Source: Candidatus Komeilibacteria bacterium (lineage in GTDB: Bacteria > Patescibacteriota > Patescibacteriia > UBA1558). From it: a DNA stretch of 64,000 nucleotides. The stretch is taken from the NCBI GenBank assembly GCA_048538275.1, contig JBLYPW010000001.1:38244-102243 (forward strand). The letters run 5' to 3'. Shown here piece by piece: positions 13,900 through 62,735 of this stretch; position 1 is the first letter of the stretch, and each line of letters starts with the position of its first letter. The notes beneath the pieces were generated by a model. It saw only the letters and a program-made list of their open reading frames with translations, did not search any database and was not told the DNA's origin. The position numbers were made by a program, and so were the translations under genes.

Positions 13900-13976
13900 T
13901 TATTATCCTGCTCCCGTAGCTCAACTGGATAGAGTGTCTGGCTTCGGACCAGAAGGTTGTAGGTTCGAATCCTGCC
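13900..13976 (+). tRNA. tRNA-Arg (anticodon TCG)
   Basis: Hand-folded cloverleaf: acceptor GCTCCCG/CGGGAGC, anticodon stem TCTGG/CCAGA with loop CTTCGGA, T-arm GGTTCGAATCC, and an encoded CCA. Confidence 0.85.
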
Positions 13977-14441
13977 GGGAGCACCACCACGTCATAACTT
14001 GCTTCCGCTGTTTCATGCCCCTGAACAAGTCAGGGTCATTCCACTGCTCATCAAGTTATTCCTTGATGCTCATTGCTTAACTCCTCGACAAGCTCGGAGC
14101 CCAAGCAATGCGCATGGCACTCACTTTTCAACTTGCTTCCGCTTACCCACTTTATTTGAGTCTTTAATTTATAAAACAGAATCTATTTTAAGACTCTGTT
14201 TTTTTGAAAGAAAACGTCGCCTAACGTTTCGGCATATCTGATGTCCGCTTTGCGGATATGGATGGAGGCTTTTGTATAAAAGCCGTAACCAGATATGCCG
14301 TGTTATATGATGTACATGTTTTCCTTTTGATTTGCGATAGCAAATCGCTCTTAAAAAAGAATCTGATTTTGTTTTTCCGTTTTGGGCGAAGGGCAGAGGG
14401 GAATTAAAGGGGTGAATGCCCGAGCCCAAAACACCTTACAA

Positions 14442-16046
14442 TTAATTTGAGCTAAATCCTTTTGTATTTGCTGCTTCAAGCGCGCTAAATATAATTTGCA
14501 TGTCTGATTCAAATTGTTCTTGCGTGATATTTCCAGCAACTTCTTTTGCGTATTCTACTTTTTGACTATTTTCTATTTCATCTTTAGATTTTTTATATTC
14601 ATTTGGATAATATTCCTCAAGTGATTCAACTGCTAATTCAAAAATTTGCCCGTTTGTAAATAAATATGGATAGCCAGCTTTAAATTGGTCATATTTTGTT
14701 TGTTGTTCGCTGTTAGGTTTGTCTATTAGAACAACTGCTTTGTCTTTATATATTGGGTTGTCCGATCCAGCTAGTGGAACAAATAATTTATGAACAGCTA
14801 ATAAACTTGGTTCTTGCTCGTCAATATCTCCACCAGCAAATATTATTTTAATTCCTTTATATTTTGTTGAGTAAAAACGCTTAATAACGATGTTAATAAA
14901 CTCAAATTCACTTTTTCCCTCGACTATTATAAAATTTCTAGGTAAGAGTAAGTCAGACGGACTACCACCCAATAGATCAAAGATTACATCAATTTTTTCT
15001 GCATCACTTACTTCTGTTATTTGGGTAATTTTATTTAATTTTTCAACCTTATGAATTTTTTGACAGTCATGATTCTCTACCACTAAAACAGACGAATGCG
15101 TGTTAATGAATACTTGGTCTGTATCGCAAATATCAAGTAAAGCTTTTTTTAAAGCTCTTTGAGCAGAGGGGTGCAGATGTAATTCTGCCTCATCAATTAA
15201 AAAGAGAAATGTGCCACCGCCACTTTGTTCTTTTCTATAATCTGCAAAAGCTTGAATAATAGATAGCATTATCGCCCTTTGCATTCCGTCGCCTTTATCT
15301 TCAGCTTTTGTTTCAATCCCGTCATCCACGGTTGTGTCAAAGCTTTTTAAAAGATCATTGAAATTTGGCGGATTTACTCCAAACTTAACTTTTGTGCCAT
15401 CTGGAAATTGTTTTTGAAGATAAACCTCAACTTTCGTACCCAGTTTATCAAGCTCTTTTCTAACTTCTGACGAATCGCTATCAAATAATTTTGAAAATTG
15501 AGTTTTAAAATCAATGTAATCTTGTGAATTGTCAATAATAGCGGTTAAAACTCCGGATAACATTGTTCCTATGGGATTCTTGTCTTTGTATTTTGAAACA
15601 TCATCAAGGCGTATCTTTGTATTCACATATTCTAATTTCGGTAAAAATTCATTTATTGCAGTATCTAATCCTGACGGATTACCTTTGTCTTCAGCACCAA
15701 CAAGATATTTTCTTTTATGATCTACGCTAGTTTTTAATACAGAAAAGTTAGTATTGCCGCCAAGCATTGTTCTAATTTTAGTTTTATTTGCATCAGTTGT
15801 TAGTTTTTCAATATCAGATTCAATCACATCTTCAAAAAAAATTTCTACGGAAATTTTATTTGATTCTTCTTTATTGAAATGTTCATCTGCTTTGGATGAT
15901 TTCGAAGTATAAAACCAATCTATTGATTCAAAAAAATTTGTTTTACCATGATTGTTCTGACCGACAAAAACTGAAAATTTATTCGGCAAAACTTCAACCT
16001 CTTGAATTGAACGGTAATTTTTTACAATAATTTTTGATATTCTCAT
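14442..16046 (-). CDS. OLD-family ATP-dependent endonuclease (ABC-type ATPase + Toprim)
   Basis: N-terminal AAA_15/ABC ATPase (VFVGQNNHGKTNF Walker A; LFLIDEAELHLHP Walker B/D-loop). C-terminal OLD-type Toprim (IIVEGKSE ... GGDID). Confidence 0.7.
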   Translation of the reverse strand: MRISKIIVKNYRSIQEVEVLPNKFSVFVGQNNHGKTNFFESIDWFYTSKSSKADEHFNKEESNKISVEIFFEDVIESDIEKLTTDANKTKIRTMLGGNTNFSVLKTSVDHKRKYLVGAEDKGNPSGLDTAINEFLPKLEYVNTKIRLDDVSKYKDKNPIGTMLSGVLTAIIDNSQDYIDFKTQFSKLFDSDSSEVRKELDKLGTKVEVYLQKQFPDGTKVKFGVNPPNFNDLLKSFDTTVDDGIETKAEDKGDGMQRAIMLSIIQAFADYRKEQSGGGTFLFLIDEAELHLHPSAQRALKKALLDICDTDQVFINTHSSVLVVENHDCQKIHKVEKLNKITQITEVSDAEKIDVIFDLLGGSPSDLLLPRNFIIVEGKSEFEFINIVIKRFYSTKYKGIKIIFAGGDIDEQEPSLLAVHKLFVPLAGSDNPIYKDKAVVLIDKPNSEQQTKYDQFKAGYPYLFTNGQIFELAVESLEEYYPNEYKKSKDEIENSQKVEYAKEVAGNITQEQFESDMQIIFSALEAANTKGFSSN

Positions 16047-16052
16047 ATTGAA

Positions 16053-16880
16053 TTAATAACCCAAGGCAAGCTGATCAAGCATATCGGGTCCCTTTTCTCG
16101 ACCGACTTCCTGATAAATCTCAAGGACTTGCTCATATGTTCCGGCTCCACCCACCAAATCCCAAAATTCTTTACCAAGTAAAACCTCGTCTTCCAAATCC
16201 ATGTAATTCACAACGAAACTATGCTTATATGTTGCTTTATTTACACCATAGGGGTTATAGGCAGTGGCGTAATATGCTTTTGCTTTTGGATATTGTTTGT
16301 AAGTTATCCCGTGAATTTGTAGCAACCGTCCTGTTGCCTCTAAACATTGTCCTTTATTCGGTTTTGGGCTTTTTATCTCAATAAAAAGTTCCGTGCCGTC
16401 TTTTTTGACAATATATAAATCAGCAATGCTGGTTCTATCTGCACTTTTCCCATCTCCAGCAATTTTAATAATTTCTTCGACAAATTCAGGATAACTTGAT
16501 TTCATTCCACCTGTGCCAATTTTGCTTGTGATTTCTTCAATTCGTTTTATAGCCTTAAGTGAGATTTGACCAGTAACACGATGTCCTCGCTCTGCGTGTT
16601 TGTGATTATCAAGTGCGATAAGACGAGCACACTCTTCAAATGTCGTGCCAAGTTTTGTAGAAAATGACCTTTCAAATTCCGTTATCGTTAGTAGTCCGTC
16701 TGGCAATAAGGATTCGTGGAACGGTTTTAAATCGCCTTTCTTTGATTCTTGGCGCAATGGCCTTAGTTGCTTAGGGTCAAAACCGTTGTCAGTTTTCTCT
16801 TCTACCATTCCTTGAATAAATCCTTCAAGGTAACCTTTAATTAATTGTCTGGTGTTTTTTGTAATCATATTTTTTGCCAA
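16053..16880 (-). CDS. putative type II restriction endonuclease (PD-(D/E)xK fold)
   Basis: ADLYIV...ELFIEIKSPK fits the PD...(D/E)xK catalytic motif. Its 3' end overlaps the start of the adjacent DNA MTase by 16 bp, implying an operon. Confidence 0.5.
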   Translation of the reverse strand: MAKNMITKNTRQLIKGYLEGFIQGMVEEKTDNGFDPKQLRPLRQESKKGDLKPFHESLLPDGLLTITEFERSFSTKLGTTFEECARLIALDNHKHAERGHRVTGQISLKAIKRIEEITSKIGTGGMKSSYPEFVEEIIKIAGDGKSADRTSIADLYIVKKDGTELFIEIKSPKPNKGQCLEATGRLLQIHGITYKQYPKAKAYYATAYNPYGVNKATYKHSFVVNYMDLEDEVLLGKEFWDLVGGAGTYEQVLEIYQEVGREKGPDMLDQLALGY

Positions 16881-18058
16881 ATTAAAATACTTTCATAAAA
16901 TGCGCCATTGCGCCGTCCTGTACGACGATTAACATGGCGTTCAACCCTCCCGATTGATTTAAACCCAACATCTGAGGGATTATATAAATTATGTTTATCG
17001 TTAACAACGATAGCCATAATTCCGTTTTTAGTCATATAATTGCGTGTGTGCAATAATACATCATTTATACCTTTTATATATTCTTTTTTTGCATCTTCTG
17101 AAGATCCTCTTTTTGCTGGTCCAATTTCTCTGGTTTCGTTATTTTTTAACCCAAGTAATTCATAAGCGTATTTATGCTGATCATGATAATCAATTAAACC
17201 AATGTAAGGTGGTGATGTAAAAACCATATCAATATCTTTCGGCAAGATTACTGTTCGTGAGTCATCATGAAATATTTTGACATCTGCTTTAGTTCTAATT
17301 TTGTTAAATTCTTTTACTCGTTGTAGAGCATCAATAGAATAGCGACTTAAAAATTTATAAGCTTCTTGAACAGGCGTACAAACTCTTCTATGTTTAAAGC
17401 ATTTATATGGTGTTTTCTGTGGTTTTTTAGGGAAGTCTAAATCATAATGCGTAACTAATCGAGCTGAACGTGCCGAGCGAGAAAGAATGATTTTTAATAA
17501 ATCTTGATATTCATAGTCTTTTATCAAACGCAAGTAGCAAAGAAGTTCTTTTTTTGTCCTATCTGCAAACCAGTCGTTAATATATTCATTTTTTGTAGCG
17601 AAAAGTTTATTAACTTTTTCATCATTTAAAAAATCTTTTTCGTATTTCGACATTCGTTTTAAGATATCACGAATTTCCTTATCTAAAAGTTCAATATCAT
17701 ATTTATCAGTTTTAACCTTAGAAAGCAGGGTGTTAAAAACAGAAATATCTGTGCCGATTGAATCAATTCCTAGTGCATTTGCTTCAACAAGTGTTGTTCC
17801 TGACCCACAAAAAGGATCATAAACTAGTTTGGGATTGAATTTACGCAAAAAAATTTCTGCCATTTGAGGAATAAATTTTCCCATGTATGGATGAAGTCGA
17901 TGAACGTGCTTTGTTCGCGCTATTTCCGGTAAATCATTTTCCCGCCAATTTAAATTAAGTGTTTCTAAATCTGTATCAAAATTAATGCTTGAAAAATTGG
18001 TCAACGGAGTTTGTTGATATTGTTTAGCGATTTTTTGAGCTACTTTATTATCGTACAT
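16865..18058 (-). CDS. DNA amino-methyltransferase (N6-adenine or N4-cytosine), alpha-type motif order
   Basis: Motif I DPFCGSGTT near the N-terminus and motif IV TSPPY about 200 aa later (N6_N4_Mtase family). The SPPY variant hints at m4C but does not prove it. Confidence 0.7.
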   Translation of the reverse strand: MYDNKVAQKIAKQYQQTPLTNFSSINFDTDLETLNLNWRENDLPEIARTKHVHRLHPYMGKFIPQMAEIFLRKFNPKLVYDPFCGSGTTLVEANALGIDSIGTDISVFNTLLSKVKTDKYDIELLDKEIRDILKRMSKYEKDFLNDEKVNKLFATKNEYINDWFADRTKKELLCYLRLIKDYEYQDLLKIILSRSARSARLVTHYDLDFPKKPQKTPYKCFKHRRVCTPVQEAYKFLSRYSIDALQRVKEFNKIRTKADVKIFHDDSRTVILPKDIDMVFTSPPYIGLIDYHDQHKYAYELLGLKNNETREIGPAKRGSSEDAKKEYIKGINDVLLHTRNYMTKNGIMAIVVNDKHNLYNPSDVGFKSIGRVERHVNRRTGRRNGAFYESILIWQKI

Positions 18059-26361: not shown

Positions 26362-26414
26362 CCATTTCATTCACAATTGGCCGCTAGGCGCAATTGTCTT
26401 ACGACAATTTATCT

Positions 26415-27617
26415 ATGAAAGACCCGATTTATGAAGAGATAGTTTCCACCACAAATTTAGCTGAGGCTTATTTTGAGATAGGTGAGAAATTTATATTGGA
26501 AGGGAAGTCTGGTTATAGCGGTTTGGATGGTTTGCAGATACAAGAATTTGATACTAATTTAGAAAAGAATTTACAAGAAATTCGTGCAGATTTGATAACA
26601 TTGGCACCGCTCATGCCTTTAAATTGCAGCCAAATTCCTAAAAAAAATGGAAAACTGCGAGATATATATATTTTATCTTTGCATGATAGGATCAAATCTC
26701 AGGCAATAATCAGAGTGCTAGAACCATTATTAGAAAAGGTTTATTCACCTTTTCTTTTTTCGTATAGGTCTACGCACCCTACACATCTAGCGGCTCGTTC
26801 AGCAGTGCGCCGTTATCATCGGTATTTTGGGAAAGATTATATTTTATTGACGGATGTTGAGAAATATTTTGATAATATTGATAAAAAAATTATCATTAAT
26901 AAATTAGAGAAATTTGGCTTGCAGTCAGCTACCTTGAGTTTAATTCAATTGTTTCTGGATCAGAAGATTTTAAGGAATAATAAGTTGCTTTCGTTAGATA
27001 GAGGCTTAATGCAAGGCGTTCCTTTGGCGGTGTCATTAGCTAATTTCTATCTCAATGAAATTGATTGGTTAATTGGCAAAAAAGTGTCTTTTTATAGGCG
27101 AGTTAGTGATGATATTTTAATTATGGATAAAAGCGAGCATAAAGTTCTGGAAATTTATGATTTGTTACAGATTGAGTTAGATAAATTGGGTCTAAATATG
27201 CACCCGACAAAAACCAAATTAATGAAAAATAGCGAATTGTTTGAGTATTTAGGGTATTTATTTCATAATAATAAAGTGGCCATCGCTACTCGGAGCCAAG
27301 AAAAGTTAATTGCCAAGTTGGAAGCAGAACTACATTATTATCCCATTGCGCTAGACAAAAAAATTGAACGATTAAGGCAAAAAATATTTACCGGCGCAGA
27401 TTCTATTTCAGCTTACCTGCAAAATACTATTCGTCATTATAGGTTTGTAGATGATTATGATCAGATAAAGGAAGTTTCAGAGAAAATTTATCATATATTA
27501 ACTAGGTATTTTTTTAAAACTTATACGGCGCGTCATCGTCGGCGGACAAAAAATATTTGTCGTGATTTGGGCATGCCATCATTTTATAAGATGTTCGTAA
27601 AATATCATCATGAATAA
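26415..27617 (+). CDS. stand-alone reverse transcriptase (group-II/retron-like RT motifs, no maturase/endonuclease domains)
   Basis: RT motifs read off the translation: IPKKNGKLRDIYILS (motifs 1/2), SYRSTHPTHLA, LLTDVEKYFDNIDKKII (motif 3), RGLMQGVPLAVSLANFYLNEID (motif 4, QGxxxS..LaN type) and FYRRVSDDILIM (motif 5, catalytic xSDD). The track ORF begins at a TTG; the first ATG is at 26415. Confidence 0.75.
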   Translation: MKDPIYEEIVSTTNLAEAYFEIGEKFILEGKSGYSGLDGLQIQEFDTNLEKNLQEIRADLITLAPLMPLNCSQIPKKNGKLRDIYILSLHDRIKSQAIIRVLEPLLEKVYSPFLFSYRSTHPTHLAARSAVRRYHRYFGKDYILLTDVEKYFDNIDKKIIINKLEKFGLQSATLSLIQLFLDQKILRNNKLLSLDRGLMQGVPLAVSLANFYLNEIDWLIGKKVSFYRRVSDDILIMDKSEHKVLEIYDLLQIELDKLGLNMHPTKTKLMKNSELFEYLGYLFHNNKVAIATRSQEKLIAKLEAELHYYPIALDKKIERLRQKIFTGADSISAYLQNTIRHYRFVDDYDQIKEVSEKIYHILTRYFFKTYTARHRRRTKNICRDLGMPSFYKMFVKYHHE

Positions 27618-31421: not shown

Positions 31422-32430
31422 TTATCATTTACCAGTGGAGCTGATAGCTCAGACGCCGGCGGATAAGCGTGATCATTCACGTTTATTAGTTTATAGTGCT
31501 GGACAGATTGAACATAGAAACTTTTTCAATCTCTCGGATTATTTACAAGCCGGCGACGTTTTAGTATTGAATGATAGCAAAGTATTTCCGGCGCGGCTAC
31601 TGGGTCGGCGGCAAGGTACAGGCGGTAAAGTGGAAATATTTTTATTACAAAACAAGGACCATGGCCAGTGGGAGTGTTTAGTAGGCCATGCCCGTGCTCA
31701 AGTTGGCTTGGTAGTGGATTTTGAATGTGGCTTGCATGCTACTTTACAAGCCAAGTTGGCAGATAGCTGGCTAGTACAATTTAATAAAGAGGCTGAGGAG
31801 TTAATGGAGATTATCAATAAAATTGGTGAAACTCCCTTGCCGCCTTATATTAAGACCATGGACGGTCCGCAGGTGCGCCAGCGCTATCAGACAGTATATG
31901 CTCAGCCAGTCGGCTCAGTAGCCGCGCCGACCGCTGGTTTTCATTTTACGTCAGAATTATTAAATAAATTAAAGAAACAAAACGTACAAATTGAATATGT
32001 AACTTTGCATGTTGGTTTAGGAACTTTTGCGCCGGTAAAAACAGATAGGATTGAAGATCATCAAATGCACTCGGAGTATTATGAAGTAGCTGATGAAACT
32101 TGGCATAGTATACAAAAAGCTAAAAAAGAAAATAGAAGAATTATAGCGGTGGGCACGACCGCTACTAGGGTTTTAGAATCAGTGGCTAGTTCTAATAAAC
32201 TTTCTGGCTGGACAGATATATTTATTTATCCCGGTTATAAATATAAAATAGTGGACTCATTAATAACAAACTTTCATTTACCAAAATCCACCTTATTAAT
32301 GTTAGTATCTGCTTTGTTGGATAATAGGGGGAGTGTTGATGGTATTGTTGAATTAAAAAGAATTTATCAGGAAGCTATAAATAATCATTATAGATTTTAT
32401 AGTTTTGGGGATGCAATGTTGATAATTTGA
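31402..32430 (+). CDS. queA: S-adenosylmethionine:tRNA ribosyltransferase-isomerase
   Basis: MKLQEFDYHLPVELIAQTPA... and the conserved C-terminus ...[11 protein letters not shown]. It overlaps the queH stop by 20 nt. Confidence 0.85.
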   Translation: MKLQEFDYHLPVELIAQTPADKRDHSRLLVYSAGQIEHRNFFNLSDYLQAGDVLVLNDSKVFPARLLGRRQGTGGKVEIFLLQNKDHGQWECLVGHARAQVGLVVDFECGLHATLQAKLADSWLVQFNKEAEELMEIINKIGETPLPPYIKTMDGPQVRQRYQTVYAQPVGSVAAPTAGFHFTSELLNKLKKQNVQIEYVTLHVGLGTFAPVKTDRIEDHQMHSEYYEVADETWHSIQKAKKENRRIIAVGTTATRVLESVASSNKLSGWTDIFIYPGYKYKIVDSLITNFHLPKSTLLMLVSALLDNRGSVDGIVELKRIYQEAINNHYRFYSFGDAMLII

Positions 32431-32482: not shown

Positions 32483-34411
32483 ATGAGCATGGAAAACCCA
32501 GGCTGGCTAAAAAATAAATATAATGATTTACATAGCTCTAAAGAGGTAAAAGCTGCAGTTCGTAGTGAAGAAGCACAAACAGGTGAAAAACTATCTCAAA
32601 ACCCAGAAAAGCAGATTCAAAGCTATTTAGATCGTTTAGAAAAGCTAGTCCTTGATCCAGATAAGAAGCAATCAAGGAAGATGATGGGTAAAGAACAAAG
32701 ACCAAGAGCAGTATCTTTACTACGTGAAATGGTAATGAATGAATATATTCGTCCCAATAAAGAAAAACTAGCAGAAGGAGCAGCCCGTGTAGAAGAAAGA
32801 GCAGCTAGGAATTTAGGAATGGATATTGAATATGGAGAAGAACAATTAGAACAAAGAGGAGAAATAGCTATAGAAGATTTAGAAAAATCACTAGATAATT
32901 GGATTTCTTATCTTTCAGATGCTAATGAACCATATCCAACTTGGTTTAGATATTATGCTTTTAGAAATATATTAAAGCTAGGAGATTATGATAAAGACAA
33001 AAAAGAGTTTACCAAGAGAACTAAAGGTAGTACTAAACTATTCCCCGAAATAGATAGGGGAGCCTTAGCATATATACAGCAAAATATAGAAGCTTCTAAA
33101 GATCCTAAAATACTTGCCAAGCTTCAAGAAGCACAAAAACAAGCAGCTAATGGTGATGTTCCAGAAGATCAGCTTATCACCAAAGAAAAGGTACAAAACT
33201 TTTCTAATCTTTCCTTTGCTAAGCAATATGCAGAAGGAATATCTAAAAATGGTGAAATAACCCCAGAGCTTAGAGCCATAACAGAAGGTAAATGGGTTAA
33301 GTATCAACAAGGTACAGAACCAACAGCTCTTTGGTCATCTCTACAAAACAAAGGCACAGCTTGGTGTACAAAAGGTTTTGCTACAGCCAAAACTCAACTT
33401 GAAGGTGGAGATTTTTATGTATATTACACATTAGATAAAAAAGGCAGTCCTACTATTCCTAGAATAGCTATAAGAATGCAAGGAGAGAATGTAGGAGAAG
33501 CCAGAGGAGTAGAAGACAGTGATCAGAATATGGAAGGTAATATGATAGCTATTGCCGAAGAAAAGCTAAGTACACTTCCAGGAGCTGAAAGCTATAAAGA
33601 AAAAACAGCTGACATGAAAATGCTTACTAGTATATATAACAGACATAAGCAAGGAGAAGAACTTATAAAAGAAGACCTTATCTTTTTATATGAAATAGAT
33701 AAACCTATTCAAGGCTTTGGTTATAAAAAAGATCCGAGAATAGAAGAAATACGAGACAAAAGAGATGTAACCAAAGATGCATCAATTGTATTTGAATGCA
33801 CTCCAGATCAAATAGCTAAAAATATTAATGAAGTAAATGAAAATACAGTAGCATATATAGGGCAATGGAATATACCAGCTTTTCAAGTAATTAAAAACCA
33901 TCCCAATATTATTTACTTTTATGAATCTTTCCCAGATAAAAAGATATTCATGCAAACTCTAGAAACAGATCCTAGTATAGATTCACCTGATACAGCCAAA
34001 CAGTCTCTTAAAGATAAGAACATCTATCTTTCAGATTGGGGAAAGGATATTTTAGAAAAAACAGAGTTTAGTAAAGAAAAACAAGAATATGATTTAGTGA
34101 GATTTACAGTAGAGCAATTAGGATTTCCAAATGGTGCTACTACTGATGAAATATATAATAAAGCTCAAGAGCTCGGACTTGAATTATGTCCAGCTGAAAT
34201 TGGACCTCAATTAAGATTACAAAGTACTAGTAAGGAATGGATGCTTATTGCTATGAAACAGATTATAGACCGTGATGGCGCTCCGAAGCTGTTCGATCTG
34301 AATGATTATGGTGTTCAGCTGGCACTGGTCAGCAACGATGCAGGGTCTGACGACAGGTGGGATTCGGACGGTAGGTTTGTGTTTCATTACCGCCCCAGTA
34401 GCAAAGCGTAG
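32483..34411 (+). CDS. hypothetical 642-aa protein whose C-terminal ~44 aa form a DGR variable region (putative DGR target)
   Basis: ORF with purine-rich composition distinct from its neighbours. The last 132 nt (34261-34392) match a downstream non-coding copy, with mismatches only at positions where that copy has A. Confidence 0.6.
   Translation: MSMENPGWLKNKYNDLHSSKEVKAAVRSEEAQTGEKLSQNPEKQIQSYLDRLEKLVLDPDKKQSRKMMGKEQRPRAVSLLREMVMNEYIRPNKEKLAEGAARVEERAARNLGMDIEYGEEQLEQRGEIAIEDLEKSLDNWISYLSDANEPYPTWFRYYAFRNILKLGDYDKDKKEFTKRTKGSTKLFPEIDRGALAYIQQNIEASKDPKILAKLQEAQKQAANGDVPEDQLITKEKVQNFSNLSFAKQYAEGISKNGEITPELRAITEGKWVKYQQGTEPTALWSSLQNKGTAWCTKGFATAKTQLEGGDFYVYYTLDKKGSPTIPRIAIRMQGENVGEARGVEDSDQNMEGNMIAIAEEKLSTLPGAESYKEKTADMKMLTSIYNRHKQGEELIKEDLIFLYEIDKPIQGFGYKKDPRIEEIRDKRDVTKDASIVFECTPDQIAKNINEVNENTVAYIGQWNIPAFQVIKNHPNIIYFYESFPDKKIFMQTLETDPSIDSPDTAKQSLKDKNIYLSDWGKDILEKTEFSKEKQEYDLVRFTVEQLGFPNGATTDEIYNKAQELGLELCPAEIGPQLRLQSTSKEWMLIAMKQIIDRDGAPKLFDLNDYGVQLALVSNDAGSDDRWDSDGRFVFHYRPSSKA
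34261..34392 (+). repeat. DGR variable repeat (VR) at the 3' end of the 642-aa gene
   Basis: Aligns over 132 nt to 34846-34977. All 18 mismatches are non-A here versus A in the other copy. A GC-rich imperfect hairpin follows (ccccagtagcaaagc / gtagcttgctacgggg). Confidence 0.8.
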
Positions 34412-34496
34412 CTTGCTACGGGGCAAGCAAGTTAGAAACTTAGAAATTTTGCCTGCCTGCCGAAGCTTCGGCGTAGGCAGGATCCTTTGTTTTTTT

Positions 34497-34598
34497 AATT
34501 CTTTGATTTCTTTGATGCTTTGATACTTTGCCTGCCCCGTAGGGAGGAACGACCGTACGGGGACCCTTTGATTTCTTTGACGCTTTGATACTTTGAGT
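34497..34598 (+). repeat. two copies of a ~32-bp unit built from CTTTGAT(T) iterons, each followed by a GC-rich hairpin
   Basis: ctttgatttctttgatgctttgatactttg (34497-34526) and ctttgatttctttgacgctttgatactttg (34566-34595). Adjacent hairpins: cctgcctgccgaagc/gcttcggcgtaggcagg and ccccgtaggg...ccgtacgggg. Confidence 0.5.
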
Positions 34599-34845
34599 CG
34601 CTACATTTTTTTGGTATAATTAATTTAGTTTGGTCTATCAGGTGGTCATGGCTTTCTGAAACCTTTCTAACGAACATAAATCGAGAATGTAAGCGGTTAA
34701 GATTTCTTGCAGAGTGATTTGTGTATCGTTTCCAAAAGAAATTAACTTGGTGTGCATTGCTGGAGGATTTTAGATCCCAAATAAAATACAGTCCATAGTC
34801 TTTTTAATAAATTACTTGGACAGTGATATAGATGGCACTGCACAT

Positions 34846-34977
34846 ATTATAGACCGTAATGGCGATCCGAAACTGTTCAATCTGAATGATAATGGTGATC
34901 AGCTGGAACTGAACAGCAACAATGCAAGGTCTGACAACAGGTGGAATTCGAACAATAGGTTTGTGTTTCATTACCGC
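34846..34977 (+). repeat. DGR template repeat (TR), non-coding
   Basis: A copy of the VR with A at all 18 variable positions (many AAT/AAC codons). No in-frame start codon upstream; a TAG stop lies in frame at 34771-34773. A hairpin ccgtag(ctactatagt)ctacgg follows. Confidence 0.8.
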
Positions 34978-35184
34978 TAGTCATTTCTTTTCCGTAGCTA
35001 CTATAGTCTACGGTTTTTCTTTTCTGGATTTTTTAGACTGTTTTTCCAGCCGCCAAACATTTTGCCAATCTCATTAAATTTTAAGGATATTGTTTCATAT
35101 TGCTTATTAGAAATAATTTTAGCTTCCCAGGATATGTGTATTAAAAATTTAAGAGTATCTAAGATTAAAATGCATTTAGAAATT

Positions 35185-35310
35185 TTATCTGCTTTTTTAG
35201 AAAATAAAGACAGTAATGATGGAATTCTAGAATTAAAAAAAATTTATCAAGAGGCGATTGAACAACAATATAGATTCTATAGCTTTGGTGACGCGATGTT
35301 GATTTTATAG
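35185..35310 (+). pseudogene. duplicated, diverged 3'-terminal fragment of queA (last ~41 codons)
   Basis: Encodes [41 protein letters not shown], matching the queA C-terminus [41 protein letters not shown]. By eye the nucleotide identity is about 78%. There is no upstream queA body. Confidence 0.7.
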
Positions 35311-35428: not shown

Positions 35429-36097
35429 ATGACAGAAAGAAATGTCACAGACGAGCAATGTTTAAAAATCAGACGACAAACAGACGATCTTGTTCGTCGA
35501 GTTGAGCAAGGAAACCTTCCTTATGATCAAGTAAGAAATTATTTGCAATATTTGATTGAGGGTAAGAGATTAAAGGTTATGAAGTCCTTTTGGATAGAAA
35601 AAGATGGTATCATCCATTTCTCTGTCACTTCAGATGGCACAACTGGTCCTGAACGGATCAAACGCCTTGAAGACAAAGGTTTTTGCATCAGTGATTTTGC
35701 CAAACGGTTATTAAATTCTTCAGAGTTTAAGCCCACCAATGGCATAACTGCTGAAGTTGCTGTTCTCAAAGGTGATCTTTTTTCAGATGGTGACCGCATC
35801 ACTAAAAAGATCAGAGCTTATGCTAAGAAGCAAAAGTTTACCATTCCTAATGCAGAAATCGCTTGTCTTATTCGTGAACAATTCACAGATGAAGATATTA
35901 AGGTAATGGGACTAAGTTGGATTATTGCTATGCACGAACCCATCAAGGATTCTGACGGTGATCCGAGCTTGCTCAGTACGCTTCGTGAAGGCGATGGCCA
36001 TTGGCTGGATGCCTATTGGGATGAGCCTGACGGTAGGTGGAATTATAACTGTGGTTTTGGTTTTGCCTTTGTTCAGTCGCAAGTATCTAGTACTTAG
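35429..36097 (+). CDS. hypothetical protein sharing the C-terminal ~40-aa module of the DGR target
   Basis: The C-terminus DSDGDPSLLSTLREGDGHWLDAYWDEPDGRWNYNCGFGFAF aligns with the VR/TR-encoded DRDGAPKLFDLNDYG...SDDRWDSDGRFVF. The shared pattern is DxDGxP.L..L...G...L......D.RW.....F.F. Confidence 0.45.
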   Translation: MTERNVTDEQCLKIRRQTDDLVRRVEQGNLPYDQVRNYLQYLIEGKRLKVMKSFWIEKDGIIHFSVTSDGTTGPERIKRLEDKGFCISDFAKRLLNSSEFKPTNGITAEVAVLKGDLFSDGDRITKKIRAYAKKQKFTIPNAEIACLIREQFTDEDIKVMGLSWIIAMHEPIKDSDGDPSLLSTLREGDGHWLDAYWDEPDGRWNYNCGFGFAFVQSQVSST

Positions 36098-36215: not shown

Positions 36216-36399
36216 TGTTTTTTGAATAACTAACGGTTTTTGGCCCTCGTCAGTAGAAGCAAAAAGAAAGCTAGTCCCTTTTTATGGTACAACCCCTAAA
36301 ATTTTGCGAGGAAAGTCCCCGATGCTTGGGTTGTTCCGAGTCAAGCTCGGTTTTTATCACGTGAAACGTGATGATATGCTAAAGAACTTTTATATAAAT

Positions 36400-36783
36400 T
36401 TATTTATCTGTTCCATTCAGAGCCACCGTTCTTTTGTCCATAACTTGTTCTTGACCATCGGTTTGTTTTTCTTCGGTTGGAGTTGGGATTAGATCGTTTA
36501 TTCCTAAATAGCCATTACTGATATTTGCTTGAGTATTATAATAATAGGGATTATCTATGCTATTGGCAGTAGAAGGACTTAGAACAGTATTATAATCATT
36601 ATTGTCAGTTAAAGCAGTTTCTGCTAGGCTAAGCATTTTGGCAGCAGCTATTATTAAAATAAGAGAAAAAAGAAAATTAAAAAACACGCTCTGCAACGAG
36701 TGTGATCGTTTTTTGTGATGATTAGATTGGTTAGTCGGTCTATTGATCCGACTATAAACAGCAGTGTTACTAACAACGCGCAT
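36400..36783 (-). CDS. hypothetical small membrane-anchored protein
   Basis: ORF with a single TM (FFNFLFSLILIIAAAKMLSLA) and an N/Y/T-rich extracytoplasmic tail. Confidence 0.3.
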   Translation of the reverse strand: MRVVSNTAVYSRINRPTNQSNHHKKRSHSLQSVFFNFLFSLILIIAAAKMLSLAETALTDNNDYNTVLSPSTANSIDNPYYYNTQANISNGYLGINDLIPTPTEEKQTDGQEQVMDKRTVALNGTDK

Positions 36784-36865
36784 TTTTTTTGATTTTTTGT
36801 TTTTTATTTTGGGAGATTTTTTTAACCTCTACTAGTAGTTTAGCACACTTTTTTACAAAAGTCAA

Positions 36866-37142
36866 CCCCGTTAGAGGTTTAGAGGGTTTTTTAACCTATT
36901 TTTACTATAATTTTGCTTAGGTTTTGTGTTTAGTGGTTTTTGTTGCCATATATTATATATGGTGTAGGAAAATGTATTTATAGACCCAAACCTCTAACGA
37001 GGCAGACCCCGTTAGAGGTTTAGAGGGTTTTTTAACCTATTTTTACTATAATTTTGCTTAGGTTTTGTGTTTAGTGGTTTATGTTGCCATATATTATATA
37101 TGGTGTAGGAAAATGTATTTATAGACTAAACTTCTCATGAGG
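36866..37142 (+). mobile_element. tandem pair of ~136-bp MITE-like elements with 15-bp terminal inverted repeats
   Basis: Unit A is 36866-37002 and unit B is 37007-37142, separated by 4 bp (caga). The two differ at only a few positions. Each starts with ccccgttagaggttt and ends with aaacctctaacgagg (degenerate to aaacttctcatgagg in B), which is its reverse complement (14/15). Each has an internal TATAAT-like box. Confidence 0.55.
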
Positions 37143-37169
37143 TAGGTTTACCGGGCCGGTGGGGAACGG

Positions 37170-37198
37170 AAAAAAAACCCACCGCTTTCGCCGGTGGG
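37170..37198 (-). terminator. rho-independent terminator (minus strand)
   Basis: Stem cccaccg/cggtggg with a 7-nt loop, followed on the minus strand by T8 (the plus strand shows aaaaaaaa before the stem). Confidence 0.65.
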
Positions 37199-37551
37199 TT
37201 ATATAATAAAGGTTTATAATTGTGGTACTTATGAAAGACTATCCCAAATAAGTTTGGGACTCCAGGGGGTTAGCCTGGAACGCCAGATATGGATCACCTC
37301 CCTCCCTTAATGCTACGCAGCTCAACAGCATTGGCGTAGTTGATTTGGCAATCACGATTGACTGGCATTTCTTCTCCTTTCATTGTTTTGCTAGCGCAGT
37401 TGTGAGCTAGCTCAATTTGACTTTTTCTACTTAGTTGGTGATTATTGCGATAATCACTATCTTTATGAGCCAATAATCCCTCCCTTGTTTGAGTTTAAAG
37501 TACCTATTAATATTATTATAAACTATTCACTTTTTGCCAAGTGGAAAAAAA

Positions 37552-38613
37552 TTATACACTAAAGCGGAAATGGCAGACATCACCGTCTTGCATAACATAA
37601 TCCTTGCCTTCTAATCGCAGCAAGCCTTTATCTTTGGCACCGTTTTCACCGTTACAATCAACAAAATCCTGCCAATTGATAACTTCTGCGCGGATAAACC
37701 CTTTGGCAAAATCAGTATGAATAACGCCGGCGGCTTCAGGTGCGGTGGCGCCTTGTTTGACTGTCCAGGCACGGGACTCTTTCGGTCCTGATGTAAAAAA
37801 AGTTAATAAGTTGAGCAATTTGTAGCTGGATATTATTAATTTATCCAGCCCGGTTGCATTGACGCCTGCAGCTTGTAAATATTCTTTCACTTCATCATCG
37901 GGCAGATCGGCCAAATCAGCTTCCAGTCGAGCACAAATATTAAGAGAATTATCAGTTTCTGGAACGCTGCCCAGCTCTTTTTCATCTACATTATTAATAT
38001 ACAGTAATGGTTTGAGCGTGAGCAAGGATAATTCTTTAATGCTGGCCAATTCTTCTTTAGTAAGGTCTAAAATACGAGCCGGTCGTCCTTCCGATAAAAC
38101 AGTTTGTATTTTTTCAGTAACGGTTATACTGGTTAATAATTTTTTATCACTATTGCCTTTAGCTTGATTTTTAAGAGCAGCTAACCTTTTTTCTACGGTG
38201 GCTAAGTCGGCTAAAGCTAGCTCAGTGTCAATCACAGCCTTGTCGTCTTCTGGAGCGATTTTATTGTTGACGTGAATAATATTATTGTCTTCAAAATGAC
38301 GTACCACTTCTATGATAGCATCCACTTCACGAATGTGTGATAAAAATTTATTGCCCAACCCCTCACCTTTATTGGCTCCCGCCACTAGACCAGCAATGTC
38401 CACAAACTCAATAGTGGTGGGTAGGGTTTTTTCTGAATTAGAAACGTAACTAAGTTGTTGCAGTCTTTCATCGGGCACCTCTACTACGCCGACATTAGGG
38501 TCAATGGTGCAGAAGGGATAATTTTCCGCGGCTACTTGTTTTTTGGTGAGAGCTTGAAAAAGGGTTGATTTGCCGACATTGGGCAAGCCGACGATTCCGA
38601 TTTGTAAGGCCAT
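37552..38613 (-). CDS. ychF: ribosome-binding ATPase YchF (Obg-family GTPase)
   Basis: MALQIGIVGLPNVGKSTLFQALT..., a C-terminal TGS domain and the expected size. Confidence 0.9.
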   Translation of the reverse strand: MALQIGIVGLPNVGKSTLFQALTKKQVAAENYPFCTIDPNVGVVEVPDERLQQLSYVSNSEKTLPTTIEFVDIAGLVAGANKGEGLGNKFLSHIREVDAIIEVVRHFEDNNIIHVNNKIAPEDDKAVIDTELALADLATVEKRLAALKNQAKGNSDKKLLTSITVTEKIQTVLSEGRPARILDLTKEELASIKELSLLTLKPLLYINNVDEKELGSVPETDNSLNICARLEADLADLPDDEVKEYLQAAGVNATGLDKLIISSYKLLNLLTFFTSGPKESRAWTVKQGATAPEAAGVIHTDFAKGFIRAEVINWQDFVDCNGENGAKDKGLLRLEGKDYVMQDGDVCHFRFSV

Positions 38614-38734
38614 AATTGATTATATATTTGATAACAAGGCTAAGTTTATTATATTTATTCGTAAATGTCTAGGCGAGCTACTTGACAAAATGTAATTAAA
38701 CAAGTAATTTAAAAACAAATAGGAGGGAAGCACC

Positions 38735-39064
38735 ATGACAACTTTAGCTCAGCAAAGTGTTATCAGCTATTGTGGCCCAGTTTTGGGAAAAGGCGTAAAC
38801 ACGAAAAAAGTTTATCGTGTTCGCGTTCCCCAGCATTTATTTGATGATTTTTATGATTTTATCAGGGCGAAATGGTCTGGTAAAAAATTTCAATCTGGAG
38901 TTTGGGAAAATGATGGGGAGAACAATGATAATGTCTTTTGTTGGTGTAGTCGGTCAGAGGGTCTTTTTGCCCTGGTTATACCCATTGGTCAGGAGAGTAA
39001 ATTTTATAAGCAGTTGATTGAATTTCAACAAGACACCGGCGTTGTTTTGGATTTCAGTTCATAA
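38735..39064 (+). CDS. hypothetical protein (109 aa)
   Basis: ORF with SD aggaggg upstream. Confidence 0.35.
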   Translation: MTTLAQQSVISYCGPVLGKGVNTKKVYRVRVPQHLFDDFYDFIRAKWSGKKFQSGVWENDGENNDNVFCWCSRSEGLFALVIPIGQESKFYKQLIEFQQDTGVVLDFSS

Positions 39065-61827: not shown

Positions 61828-61856
61828 TTGACAAATTAGTGAATATGATGTATAGT
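61828..61856 (+). promoter_or_regulatory. near-consensus sigma70 promoter
   Basis: -35 TTGACA (61828-61833), a 17-nt spacer, -10 TATAGT (61851-61856). It drives a ~240-nt leader before the 62100 gene. Confidence 0.55.
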
Positions 61857-62099
61857 ACTTTATTACCTTGAAAATTTAGCTGTCTGCCCAGGAGAGAGTT
61901 AATTGTCTTTTAGACTGGTTTGCACCTGTCCCTGACGGCGATAATTCTGATAAGAGTAATCCGGCTTACATTTTTTATGTTTGATTCTGGATCATTCCTA
62001 TCAATTTATCATTGAGCTGAAGTTGGCTATTATAGCTGACCACTCAGCTTTTAACTCTCTTGTTGGCAGACAACTAATTAATAAAAAAAGGAGTTCATC

Positions 62100-62735
62100 A
62101 TGAACTTATGGATTTGTCAGGTGGTATTGATAATTGATCGGGTCATTCCCGAGATTGTCAACCACAAGATGGTCAAGATTGTTAATAAGGGTAAAAGAAA
62201 TTTTACCCAGATTATCATGGATGTTGCCGAGAATGGTGACATCTCAAATCCATTGAGTGTTGAGCTTAATGGAAAGTTGAGGATTAAGCTTTTGTCCAAG
62301 ACTTGGACGGCTGGGCGGAATGGTTTTCATTATGCACAGAATGTCTGTGACTTGCATGGCCGCAAGTTACAGCCTTTGCATGCGAATGGCAATTTTGCCA
62401 TTTTCTCTTATGAGAAGGCGGCTATTGTCCAGGCCTGTTGTGAAACAGGCAGCTTCCGGATAGTCACTTTACGGCTGGATGGCAATTGCCTGAAAGCTGA
62501 TGAGGTGATGCCCTGGACAGAGCAGTTTGGATCCATGATTCCCGAGGGGAGTCGGGAGAATTGGTTGAGGAATTATGGACTCAAGGCAGCTGGCAAAAGC
62601 CAGTATACTGCGGCTGCCCTGGATGCTTACGCGCTGGCAAAAGCTGCGGCAACGGAGCAGATTCCACCTCGTCCGAGCTTTTTCCTCACCCGTGAGGAAG
62701 TCAAAGCACGTCGCGCAGAGAAATCCACGGCGTGA
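62100..62735 (+). CDS. hypothetical protein, compositionally GC-richer than its surroundings
   Basis: ORF with strong SD (aaaggag) and no recognised domain. GC is visibly higher (~50%) than in the neighbouring genes. Confidence 0.4.
   Translation: MNLWICQVVLIIDRVIPEIVNHKMVKIVNKGKRNFTQIIMDVAENGDISNPLSVELNGKLRIKLLSKTWTAGRNGFHYAQNVCDLHGRKLQPLHANGNFAIFSYEKAAIVQACCETGSFRIVTLRLDGNCLKADEVMPWTEQFGSMIPEGSRENWLRNYGLKAAGKSQYTAAALDAYALAKAAATEQIPPRPSFFLTREEVKARRAEKSTA

Follow-up and report, generated by a model that had tools for sequence, protein, structure and literature searches.

The described systems closest to the locus analyzed here are the small palindromic intergenic repeats known as Correia elements (NEMIS/CREE) in Neisseria, ERIC/IRU in enterobacteria, and RUP in Streptococcus pneumoniae, which measure 100-155 bp and occur as families of tens to hundreds of dispersed copies. 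Correia and RUP elements show a TA target duplication and carry inverted repeats related to an IS, and the REPs of enterobacteria are about 35 nt long, occur in great numbers, and go together with RAYT transposases. Local tandem duplications of intergenic DNA with hairpins, for their part, are common and usually neutral. Clustered multi-base changes that perfect an inverted repeat with a short spacer are the signature of template-switch (quasipalindrome) mutation, a form of correction that is reportedly known from the E. coli mutagenesis studies of Ripley and of Lovett and colleagues.

We followed up an earlier reading of a 64-kb stretch of DNA from a Candidatus Komeilibacteria bacterium (the window, by which we mean the whole stretch that was analyzed). 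This sequence-only reading had described a tandem pair of MITE-like elements with terminal inverted repeats or, alternatively, a small duplicated structured-RNA gene. We find that the tandem pair is real and most likely of an ordinary kind, one more case of intergenic DNA with a hairpin that was duplicated locally in tandem, and that nothing tested shows its units to be a mobile element or a known RNA gene.

Anatomy of the tandem units

Tandem Repeats Finder reported a repeat of period 141 with 1.9 copies, 99% matches, and a score of 517 at 36865-37126, and a repeat search of the window recovered the same locus as two 121-nt copies of 99% identity (36865-36985 and 37006-37126). These copies are the cores of two units that lie head to tail at a constant period of 141 with no unique DNA in between, which is the form expected of a simple tandem duplication (Table 1). 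Repeat finding and base-by-base comparison therefore bear out the description of two near-identical units in the same orientation with only CAGA between them. The inverted ends had also been quoted correctly, with 14/15 complementary positions in unit 1 and a weaker 11/15 in unit 2; if G-U pairs are allowed, these values rise to 15/15 for the unit 1 3' arm on minus-strand RNA (one G-U pair) and to 13/15 for the unit 2 3' arm on plus-strand RNA. The arm pairing of unit 1 can be extended to 19 pairs with a 3-nt bulge, and the 3' arm of unit 2 contains a perfect 8-nt palindrome of its own (CTCATGAG). Measured from arm to arm, the units span 137 and 136 nt around an AT-rich interior of 107 nt, and each has the TATAAT box and the T tract that had been assigned to it.

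Table 1. Coordinates of the tandem units, their surroundings, and other features of the window
Feature	Position	Strand	Description
Tandem unit 1	36865..37005		141 nt; 121-nt core plus 20-nt tail (3' arm plus CAGA spacer)
Tandem unit 2	37006..37146		141 nt; core identical to unit 1 at 120/121 positions; tail with 5 substitutions and 1 indel
Unit 1 5' inverted-repeat arm	36866..36880	+	CCCCGTTAGAGGTTT; directly adjoins the -35 box of the downstream gene's promoter
Unit 1 3' arm	36988..37002	+	AAACCTCTAACGAGG; 14/15 complementary to both 5' arms
Unit 2 5' arm	37007..37021	+	CCCCGTTAGAGGTTT; same as unit 1 5' arm
Unit 2 3' arm	37128..37142	+	AAACTTCTCATGAGG; 11/15 complementary to the 5' arm
CAGA spacer between units	37003-37006		
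TATAAT boxes	36907-36912, 37048-37053		
T6 runs	36887-36892, 37028-37033		
Junction palindrome	36984..37033	+	Unit 1 3' arm plus CAGA plus unit 2 5' arm; stem of about 20 bp
ychF	38613-37552	-	
Promoter-like site 3' of ychF	37540-37512	-	
Small transcription unit downstream of ychF	37240-37545	-	Conserved in relatives L082 (11250-11560), L084, and L093
Strong intrinsic terminator T1	37168..37200	-	9-bp GC stem (37200-37176) plus T8; ends the small-ORF unit
Sigma-70 promoter of the small membrane-protein gene	36837..36865	-	TTGACT (36865-36860), 17 nt, TGn-TAAACT
Predicted membrane-protein ORF	36400..36783	-	127 aa; driven by the sigma-70 promoter above
222-aa ORF	35429-36097	+	No Pfam or NCBIfam match
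Duplicated queA 3' end	32306-32423, 35186-35303		118 nt, 77% identity
DGR-type repeat pair	34258-34393, 34842-34977		88% identical over 136 nt
GC-rich inverted repeat	34407-34430, 34528-34551		24 nt, 79% complementary, arms 97 nt apart; begins at the DGR target's stop codon
Reverse transcriptase	26394-27617	+	Pfam RVT_1, E 3e-28; 7 kb from the template repeat
Inverted repeat in leader	61876-61902, 62051-62077		27 nt, 85% complementary, 148 nt apart, within a leader of about 230 nt

Inverted repeats of this quality are not rare in themselves. At a spacing of 50-200 nt, 14/15 inverted repeats occur at 4 loci in the window versus a mean of 1.25 hits per Markov-shuffled window (20 shuffles), and the inverted repeat by itself is only mildly unusual. 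Chance does not account for its placement at the exact ends of a 141-nt tandem unit together with its extension to 19 pairs. The period of 141 equals 47 codons, and a coding repeat was rejected because neither strand of the units contains an ORF of at least 30 aa. The exclusion of a CRISPR array in the sequence-only reading was equally sound: The unit size is wrong, there are only two copies, and cas genes are absent. On the same grounds, and with no toxin genes present, we also discarded repeats of a type III antitoxin.

Differences between the copies

Base-by-base comparison revealed a single mismatch in the first 121 nt (T at 36940 versus A at 37081), and all other differences lie in the last 20 nt of the units. 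Hence 6 of the 7 differences between the copies, which comprise C/T, A/C, and T/A changes and an indel, fall into one 20-nt stretch of 141 positions (binomial P = 5e-5). Judged by this comparison, such clustering is a misfit with the uniform decay of two slowly diverging copies, so that the earlier picture of two copies drifting apart is wrong, and the decayed terminal repeat of the second copy is better seen as a difference localized to the arm. Either an event specific to the arm took place, or the tail was left unhomogenized while the core was homogenized. In its present state the internal arm is complementary at 14/15 positions to the arm 4 nt away and the outer arm at 11/15, and an outgroup would be needed to decide in which direction the arm changed. 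The core identity of 120/121 shows that the putative duplication, or a later gene conversion, is recent.

A repeat of 121 nt is near short-read length, and the one independent assembly of this locus breaks within it, which could be taken to mean that the duplication is an artifact of assembly. This assembly, a Logan contig (SRR32315888) from the independent strain L081, is 99.56% identical to the window over 37111-38933 and identical throughout 37111-37551, including the tail of unit 2, before the short-read contig stops 16 nt inside the repeat. A real repeat would tend to produce a break of this sort, which is no proof of one but counts against an artifact. Moreover, artifactual duplications are normally perfect and located at contig ends, whereas the two copies differ by one internal mismatch and have different tails, and the site lies in the middle of a contig of 487 kb. 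We regard an artifact as so improbable that it barely counts.

The junction palindrome and the folding of the units

Where the 2 units meet, a palindrome arises from the 3' arm of unit 1, CAGA, and the 5' arm of unit 2; it is the most clearly defined element of the array and exists solely through the adjacency of the units. As plus-strand RNA the junction folds with -23.9 kcal/mol (z -5.7) into a stem that runs directly into U6 (encoded by the second T6 run), and as minus-strand RNA it forms an 18-bp stem of -28 kcal/mol (z -7.8) with no U tract. A stable, GC-containing hairpin followed by a U tract is the structure of an intrinsic terminator, and the plus-strand junction accordingly looks like a textbook example that may be able to terminate transcription. 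Its position is a different matter: The nearest plus-strand ORF stops at 36097 and is followed by a terminator-like site of its own (36336-36350), and only antisense transcription could reach the junction hairpin.

The folding of the single units differs between the two copies. Unit 1 alone forms a long hairpin with z-scores of -3.7 (plus strand) and -6.4 (minus strand) relative to shuffled sequences, and unit 2 shows no significant excess stability (z -1.2 and -2.0). One could imagine from this that each unit is a small RNA gene on the plus strand with transcription starting after the TATAAT box, in which case the junction hairpin with its U6 would end a first transcript of about 115 nt, and a second one would end near T1, acting as a bidirectional terminator. 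The -10 box indeed lies about 75 nt upstream of the strong terminator-like hairpin, and the folding of unit 1 exceeds that of shuffled sequences. Against this stand the lack of an acceptable -35 box and the promoter scan, which listed no plus-strand site in the units despite their TATAAT boxes and only weak candidates on the minus strand (TAAACA-17-TATAGT, 9/12), as well as the fold signal itself, which comes mainly from the terminal arms and is not significant in unit 2. Rfam 15 matched nothing in the window at gathering threshold except a tRNA, and the best scores within 36600-37500 were far below threshold; for the units, Rfam was empty at both gathering and E-value thresholds, and we rejected a known RNA family on these grounds. 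The relatives described below hold no homologue of the unit, which precludes a test for covariation. A duplicated structured-RNA gene, the second proposal of the sequence-only reading, thus finds no support in Rfam or in conservation among relatives, and we consider small RNA genes very unlikely here.

Genomic setting

On the minus strand, the order of features is ychF, a promoter-like site, the small-ORF region, terminator T1, a spacer, unit 2, unit 1, the sigma-70 promoter, and the membrane-protein ORF, for which NCBI calls a 78-aa version. T1 lies about 22-29 nt upstream of unit 2 in minus-strand sense, and at the other end the repeat overlaps the -35 hexamer TTGACT by one base, the first T of the hexamer being base 1 of the repeat. 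The array therefore occupies the space between a terminator and a promoter of 2 co-directional units. The adjoining stretch at 37150-37200 is GC-rich in a genome of about 38% GC and contains two copies of CCCACCGGC, one within the T1 stem and the other 20 nt farther downstream on the minus strand, a further sign of small local duplications in this spacer.

Immediate contact with a promoter raises the question of whether the array is a set of protein-binding sites, either an operator or an UP-like element, for the membrane-protein gene. Six copies of the motif TAGAGG(G)TT lie within 210 bp, placed on both sides of the core promoter in inverted orientation (plus strand, 36873-36880, 36881-36889, 37014-37021, and 37022-37030; minus strand, 36989-36996 and 36824-31), and the relatives carry TAGAAGGT at the matching position of the 5'UTR. 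Most of these motif copies, however, are the repeat arms counted again, the upstream copies are missing in the relatives, and no regulator gene lies adjacent, which makes binding sites a highly improbable explanation. We also asked if the array contains further relics of duplication. A decayed third copy and an origin of the interior as a diverged duplicate of the promoter/5'UTR were both rejected (102/1000 and 247/1000 shuffles score at least as high as the local alignment), and the sole stretch similar to the promoter/5'UTR side is one of 16 nt (36813-36828 versus 36882-36897).

The small transcription unit downstream of ychF is conserved in its own right. It consists of the promoter-like site and one or two short ORFs with strong ribosome-binding sites, and the N-terminal motif NNHQL.RK..F.L of the short ORF is kept across relatives. 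The sequence GGAGGTGATCC, which we take to be the canonical Shine-Dalgarno consensus (the 16S rRNA of the host is not encoded in the window), overlaps or follows the stop codon of the short ORF (37301-37291 in the window), is not followed by a start codon, and precedes two conserved hairpins and then the terminator. Directly after the ychF stop, the relatives have a stretch of about 190 nt that includes a GC-rich terminator (L082, 11063-11250, and its equivalents in L084 and L093); the window lacks this stretch (37545-37551), so that the promoter of the small-ORF unit directly follows ychF.

Comparison with related loci

We compared the locus with its counterparts in seven Komeilibacteria (L082-L087 and L093), which share the order ychF, about 540-590 bp of DNA, a small membrane ORF, and queA. 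A search with YchF found only two near-identical proteins, one annotated on the 487-kb contig of a Candidatus Komeilibacteria MAG and one on the Logan contig; the next relatives are about 75-76% identical, so that public data offer none in between. The membrane ORF of the window is 40% identical to the ORFs of 118 to 136 aa found at the same site in the relatives, and this family has a single match in the protein database and none in the JGI metagenomes. Its promoter is kept nearly base for base (GGGGTTGACTTTTG..AAAAATGTGCTACAAT, or TTGACTTTTG...TGTGCTACAAT, in the relatives).

Directly against the same -35 box, all seven relatives have a short GC hairpin of about 25 nt with 9 to 12 bp. It reads CCCCTGTCT-ATTCTTT-AGACAGGGG in L082, L083, and L085-87, CCCCCATCTAAA-TC-TTTAGGTGGGGG in L084, and CCCCCATCTAA-ATCA-TTAGATGGGGG in L093, and these variants differ from one another by compensating changes. 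Neither nhmmer nor blastn found anything similar to the 141-nt unit in the seven related loci, and the roughly 310 nt between T1 and the -35 box are therefore specific to the lineage of the window. From this alignment of loci, the segment is best described as an insertion-like gain that is absent from the same intergenic site of the nearest relatives. For a homology of the arm to the terminator hairpin of the relatives, the approximately 22 of 33 columns that match by eye are suggestive, but we rejected it because the sequence is too short and too low in complexity for such a claim.

Evidence for and against mobility

The resemblance to a MITE holds as far as form is concerned. The units are non-coding, have sizes below the limit of about 600 bp, contain no transposase ORF, and are bounded by inverted repeats that are good in unit 1 (14/15) and poor in unit 2 (11/15); their interior is AT-rich, and the relatives lack them. 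It fails on target duplication, and the window shows neither further copies nor a transposase. No target-site duplication surrounds either unit or the pair under the 15-nt or the 20-nt definition of the arms (the flanks read ..GTCAA, unit 1, CAGA, unit 2, TAGGT..). Likewise, blastn, nhmmer, and an arm search allowing 3 mismatches found no further full or partial copy in the 64-kb window, and Pfam found no transposase or integrase among its ORFs of at least 110 aa, of which all but two short ones were scanned.

The search for copies elsewhere was also negative. The exact 21-mer that spans the 5' arm had no match in 185,579 GTDB species genomes, the JGI metagenomes, and IMG/VR, none of which contain the source genome; the pattern of 2 terminal inverted repeats with a gap had none in IMG/VR, nor did blastn of the unit in phage and plasmid collections, from which the source genome is again missing. 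These negatives are weak tests of mobility because the source genome is absent from the collections, as the lack of a self-match shows.

On this basis we can weigh the proposal that a single unit is a mobile element of the small palindromic sort represented by Correia, ERIC, or RUP elements that inserted between terminator and promoter and gained its second copy by local duplication or a second insertion. Its size of 137 nt, the 15-nt inverted ends extendable to 19 pairs, the AT-rich interior with promoter-like boxes, and the intergenic site beside a terminator that is empty of it in the relatives all speak for such an element. Besides the missing target-site duplication under any definition of the boundaries, the missing copies and transposase in the window, and the lack of matches in public collections (the weak tests just mentioned), it is at odds with the position of the arm, whose GGGG end lies exactly where the terminator hairpin of the relatives has its GGGG end, a hint that the arm may be ancestral sequence. 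We therefore judge a mobile origin of the unit rather unlikely. As to the double insertion envisaged earlier, two transpositions in the same orientation 4 bp apart are much less likely than one local duplication.

A changing neighborhood

Compared with its relatives, the neighborhood of the tandem pair is a hot spot of change: The region from queA to the membrane ORF is rearranged and holds a DGR target cassette flanked by a duplicated 3' end of queA, which is biologically more interesting than the tandem repeat. One copy of the DGR-type repeat pair forms the 3' end of a 642-aa ORF (32483-34411), and the non-coding copy lies 584 nt downstream. The two mismatch at 17 positions, and at 16 of these the downstream copy has an adenine (11 A to G, 3 A to T, and 2 A to C), the classic relation of a template repeat to a variable repeat. 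The inverted repeat that begins at the stop codon of this target gene can be seen alongside the hairpin or cruciform elements that DGRs often carry next to the variable repeat. The 2 copies of the queA 3' end bracket the 642-aa target gene and the template repeat, an arrangement that looks like an insertion of the cassette at the queA end; an 82-aa ORF (35062-35310) matches the last 28 positions of the Queuosine_synth profile, and the relatives have zero to two small ORFs at the position after queA. The C-terminus of the 222-aa ORF (..DGDPSLL..DGRWNYNCGFGFAF) is similar to the variable domain at the C-terminal end of the 642-aa target, and this ORF may be a second or former DGR target gene.

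The only reverse transcriptase encoded in the window is closest to the RTs of group II introns and the G2L type (NCBIfam group_II_RT_mat, 167 bits versus a cutoff of 300; best PDB matches 7uim and 5hhl), has VSDD where YxDD is expected, and shows QG instead of the SQ motif of DGR-type enzymes. Two links between these features and the tandem units were considered and dismissed. The units are not themselves a pair of DGR template and variable repeats, as their differences are not adenine-specific, neither copy is coding, and a conserved gene separates them from the DGR cassette, and they are not the ncRNA of a retron, as they lie 9 kb from the reverse transcriptase.

Further away in the window, a leader between a promoter-like TTGACA..TATAGT (about 61829-61857) and an ORF without Pfam match (62100-62735) contains a long inverted repeat; it had no Rfam match even at E-values up to 1 and looks like a structured 5' leader or riboswitch candidate. 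At 13910-18058, a tRNA-Arg(TCG) precedes a stretch of low GC (0.33-0.34) with genes for an AAA_15/AbiEii-like ATPase, a TdeIII-type restriction endonuclease, and a DNA methylase, probably a small defense island inserted beside the tRNA.

Discussion

We propose, with a probability of about one half, that this lineage acquired the locus, a non-coding spacer specific to it, when a hairpin-bounded segment of about 140 nt was duplicated locally in tandem, and that subsequent change was restricted to one arm. Replication slippage or unequal recombination could have produced the duplication, which is favored because it is a single event that replaces two far less likely transpositions in the same orientation 4 bp apart. 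By its geometry it would have brought the 3' arm of one copy and the 5' arm of the following copy to within 4 nt of each other and created a near-perfect palindrome of 15 to 20 bp. A one-step duplication predicts identity over 141 nt in some phase, and the 121 nt observed mean that a second process must be invoked. This could be a palindrome-directed template switch (quasipalindrome correction) or selection for pairing of the arms; alternatively, a tract of gene conversion that stopped short of the tail would account for the arm differences. The 107-nt interior has no counterpart in the relatives, and its source is left unexplained by local duplication; it also speaks against this view, and against a terminator, that no plus-strand gene lies upstream of the terminator-like hairpin on that strand.

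If the element has a function, it would most likely be that of a transcriptional insulator. The site lies between ychF with its small-ORF unit, which ends at T1, and the co-directional membrane-protein gene. On the plus strand, the junction hairpin with its U6 would halt antisense transcription, and on the minus strand any RNA reading through T1 would form long hairpins reaching as far as the -35 box, so that the units would take the place of the short terminator hairpin of the relatives. At most, we infer a role in insulating the co-directional units from each other.

As it stands, the tandem pair is of small importance. Its value lies in being a clean natural case of very young duplicates whose sequence differences stay within one arm of a freshly formed palindrome, the expected signature of template-switch correction or of selection on the hairpin. 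Should further copies exist in the genome, the unit would give the CPR bacteria a rare documented case of a non-autonomous element; genomes are small in this group, for which our literature search found no paper describing non-autonomous elements of this kind. It is quite unlikely that the unit represents a new family of small palindromic mobile elements in the CPR/Patescibacteria, of which it would be the first member seen, or a small-RNA gene that exists in this lineage alone. If it did, the unit would carry an outward-facing intrinsic terminator and insert beside promoters and terminators, and the tandem pair would testify to very recent activity in a genome streamlined to about 1 Mb.

Comparison with known systems

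Clustered palindromic units in intergenic DNA downstream of terminators are reminiscent of REP/BIME clusters, from which the locus differs in that the size and high copy number of REPs and their RAYT transposases are not seen here. With Correia, ERIC, and RUP elements the unit shares its non-coding nature, terminal inverted repeats, an AT-rich interior with promoter-like boxes, an intergenic location near terminators and promoters, and the long hairpin that it forms when transcribed. Unlike Correia and RUP elements, it comes without target duplication or a cognate transposase and is known from one locus; the resemblance is one of form, and membership in this type of family fails on target duplication.

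The junction is like an intrinsic terminator, including bidirectional ones, in its GC-containing stem of about 20 bp followed by U6 on the plus strand. It departs from them in that no plus-strand gene ends upstream of it and the minus strand has no U tract, and in a single unit 107 nt separate the arms, many more than the loop of a normal terminator would have. For the changes in the arm, selection for the hairpin or a conversion tract ending before the tail would give the same picture as a template switch, and the perfect 8-nt palindrome within the outer arm is a feature that quasipalindrome correction does not share. What the locus has in common with this process are changes confined to one arm, a spacer of 4 nt, and an arm that is nearly perfectly complementary to its neighbor.
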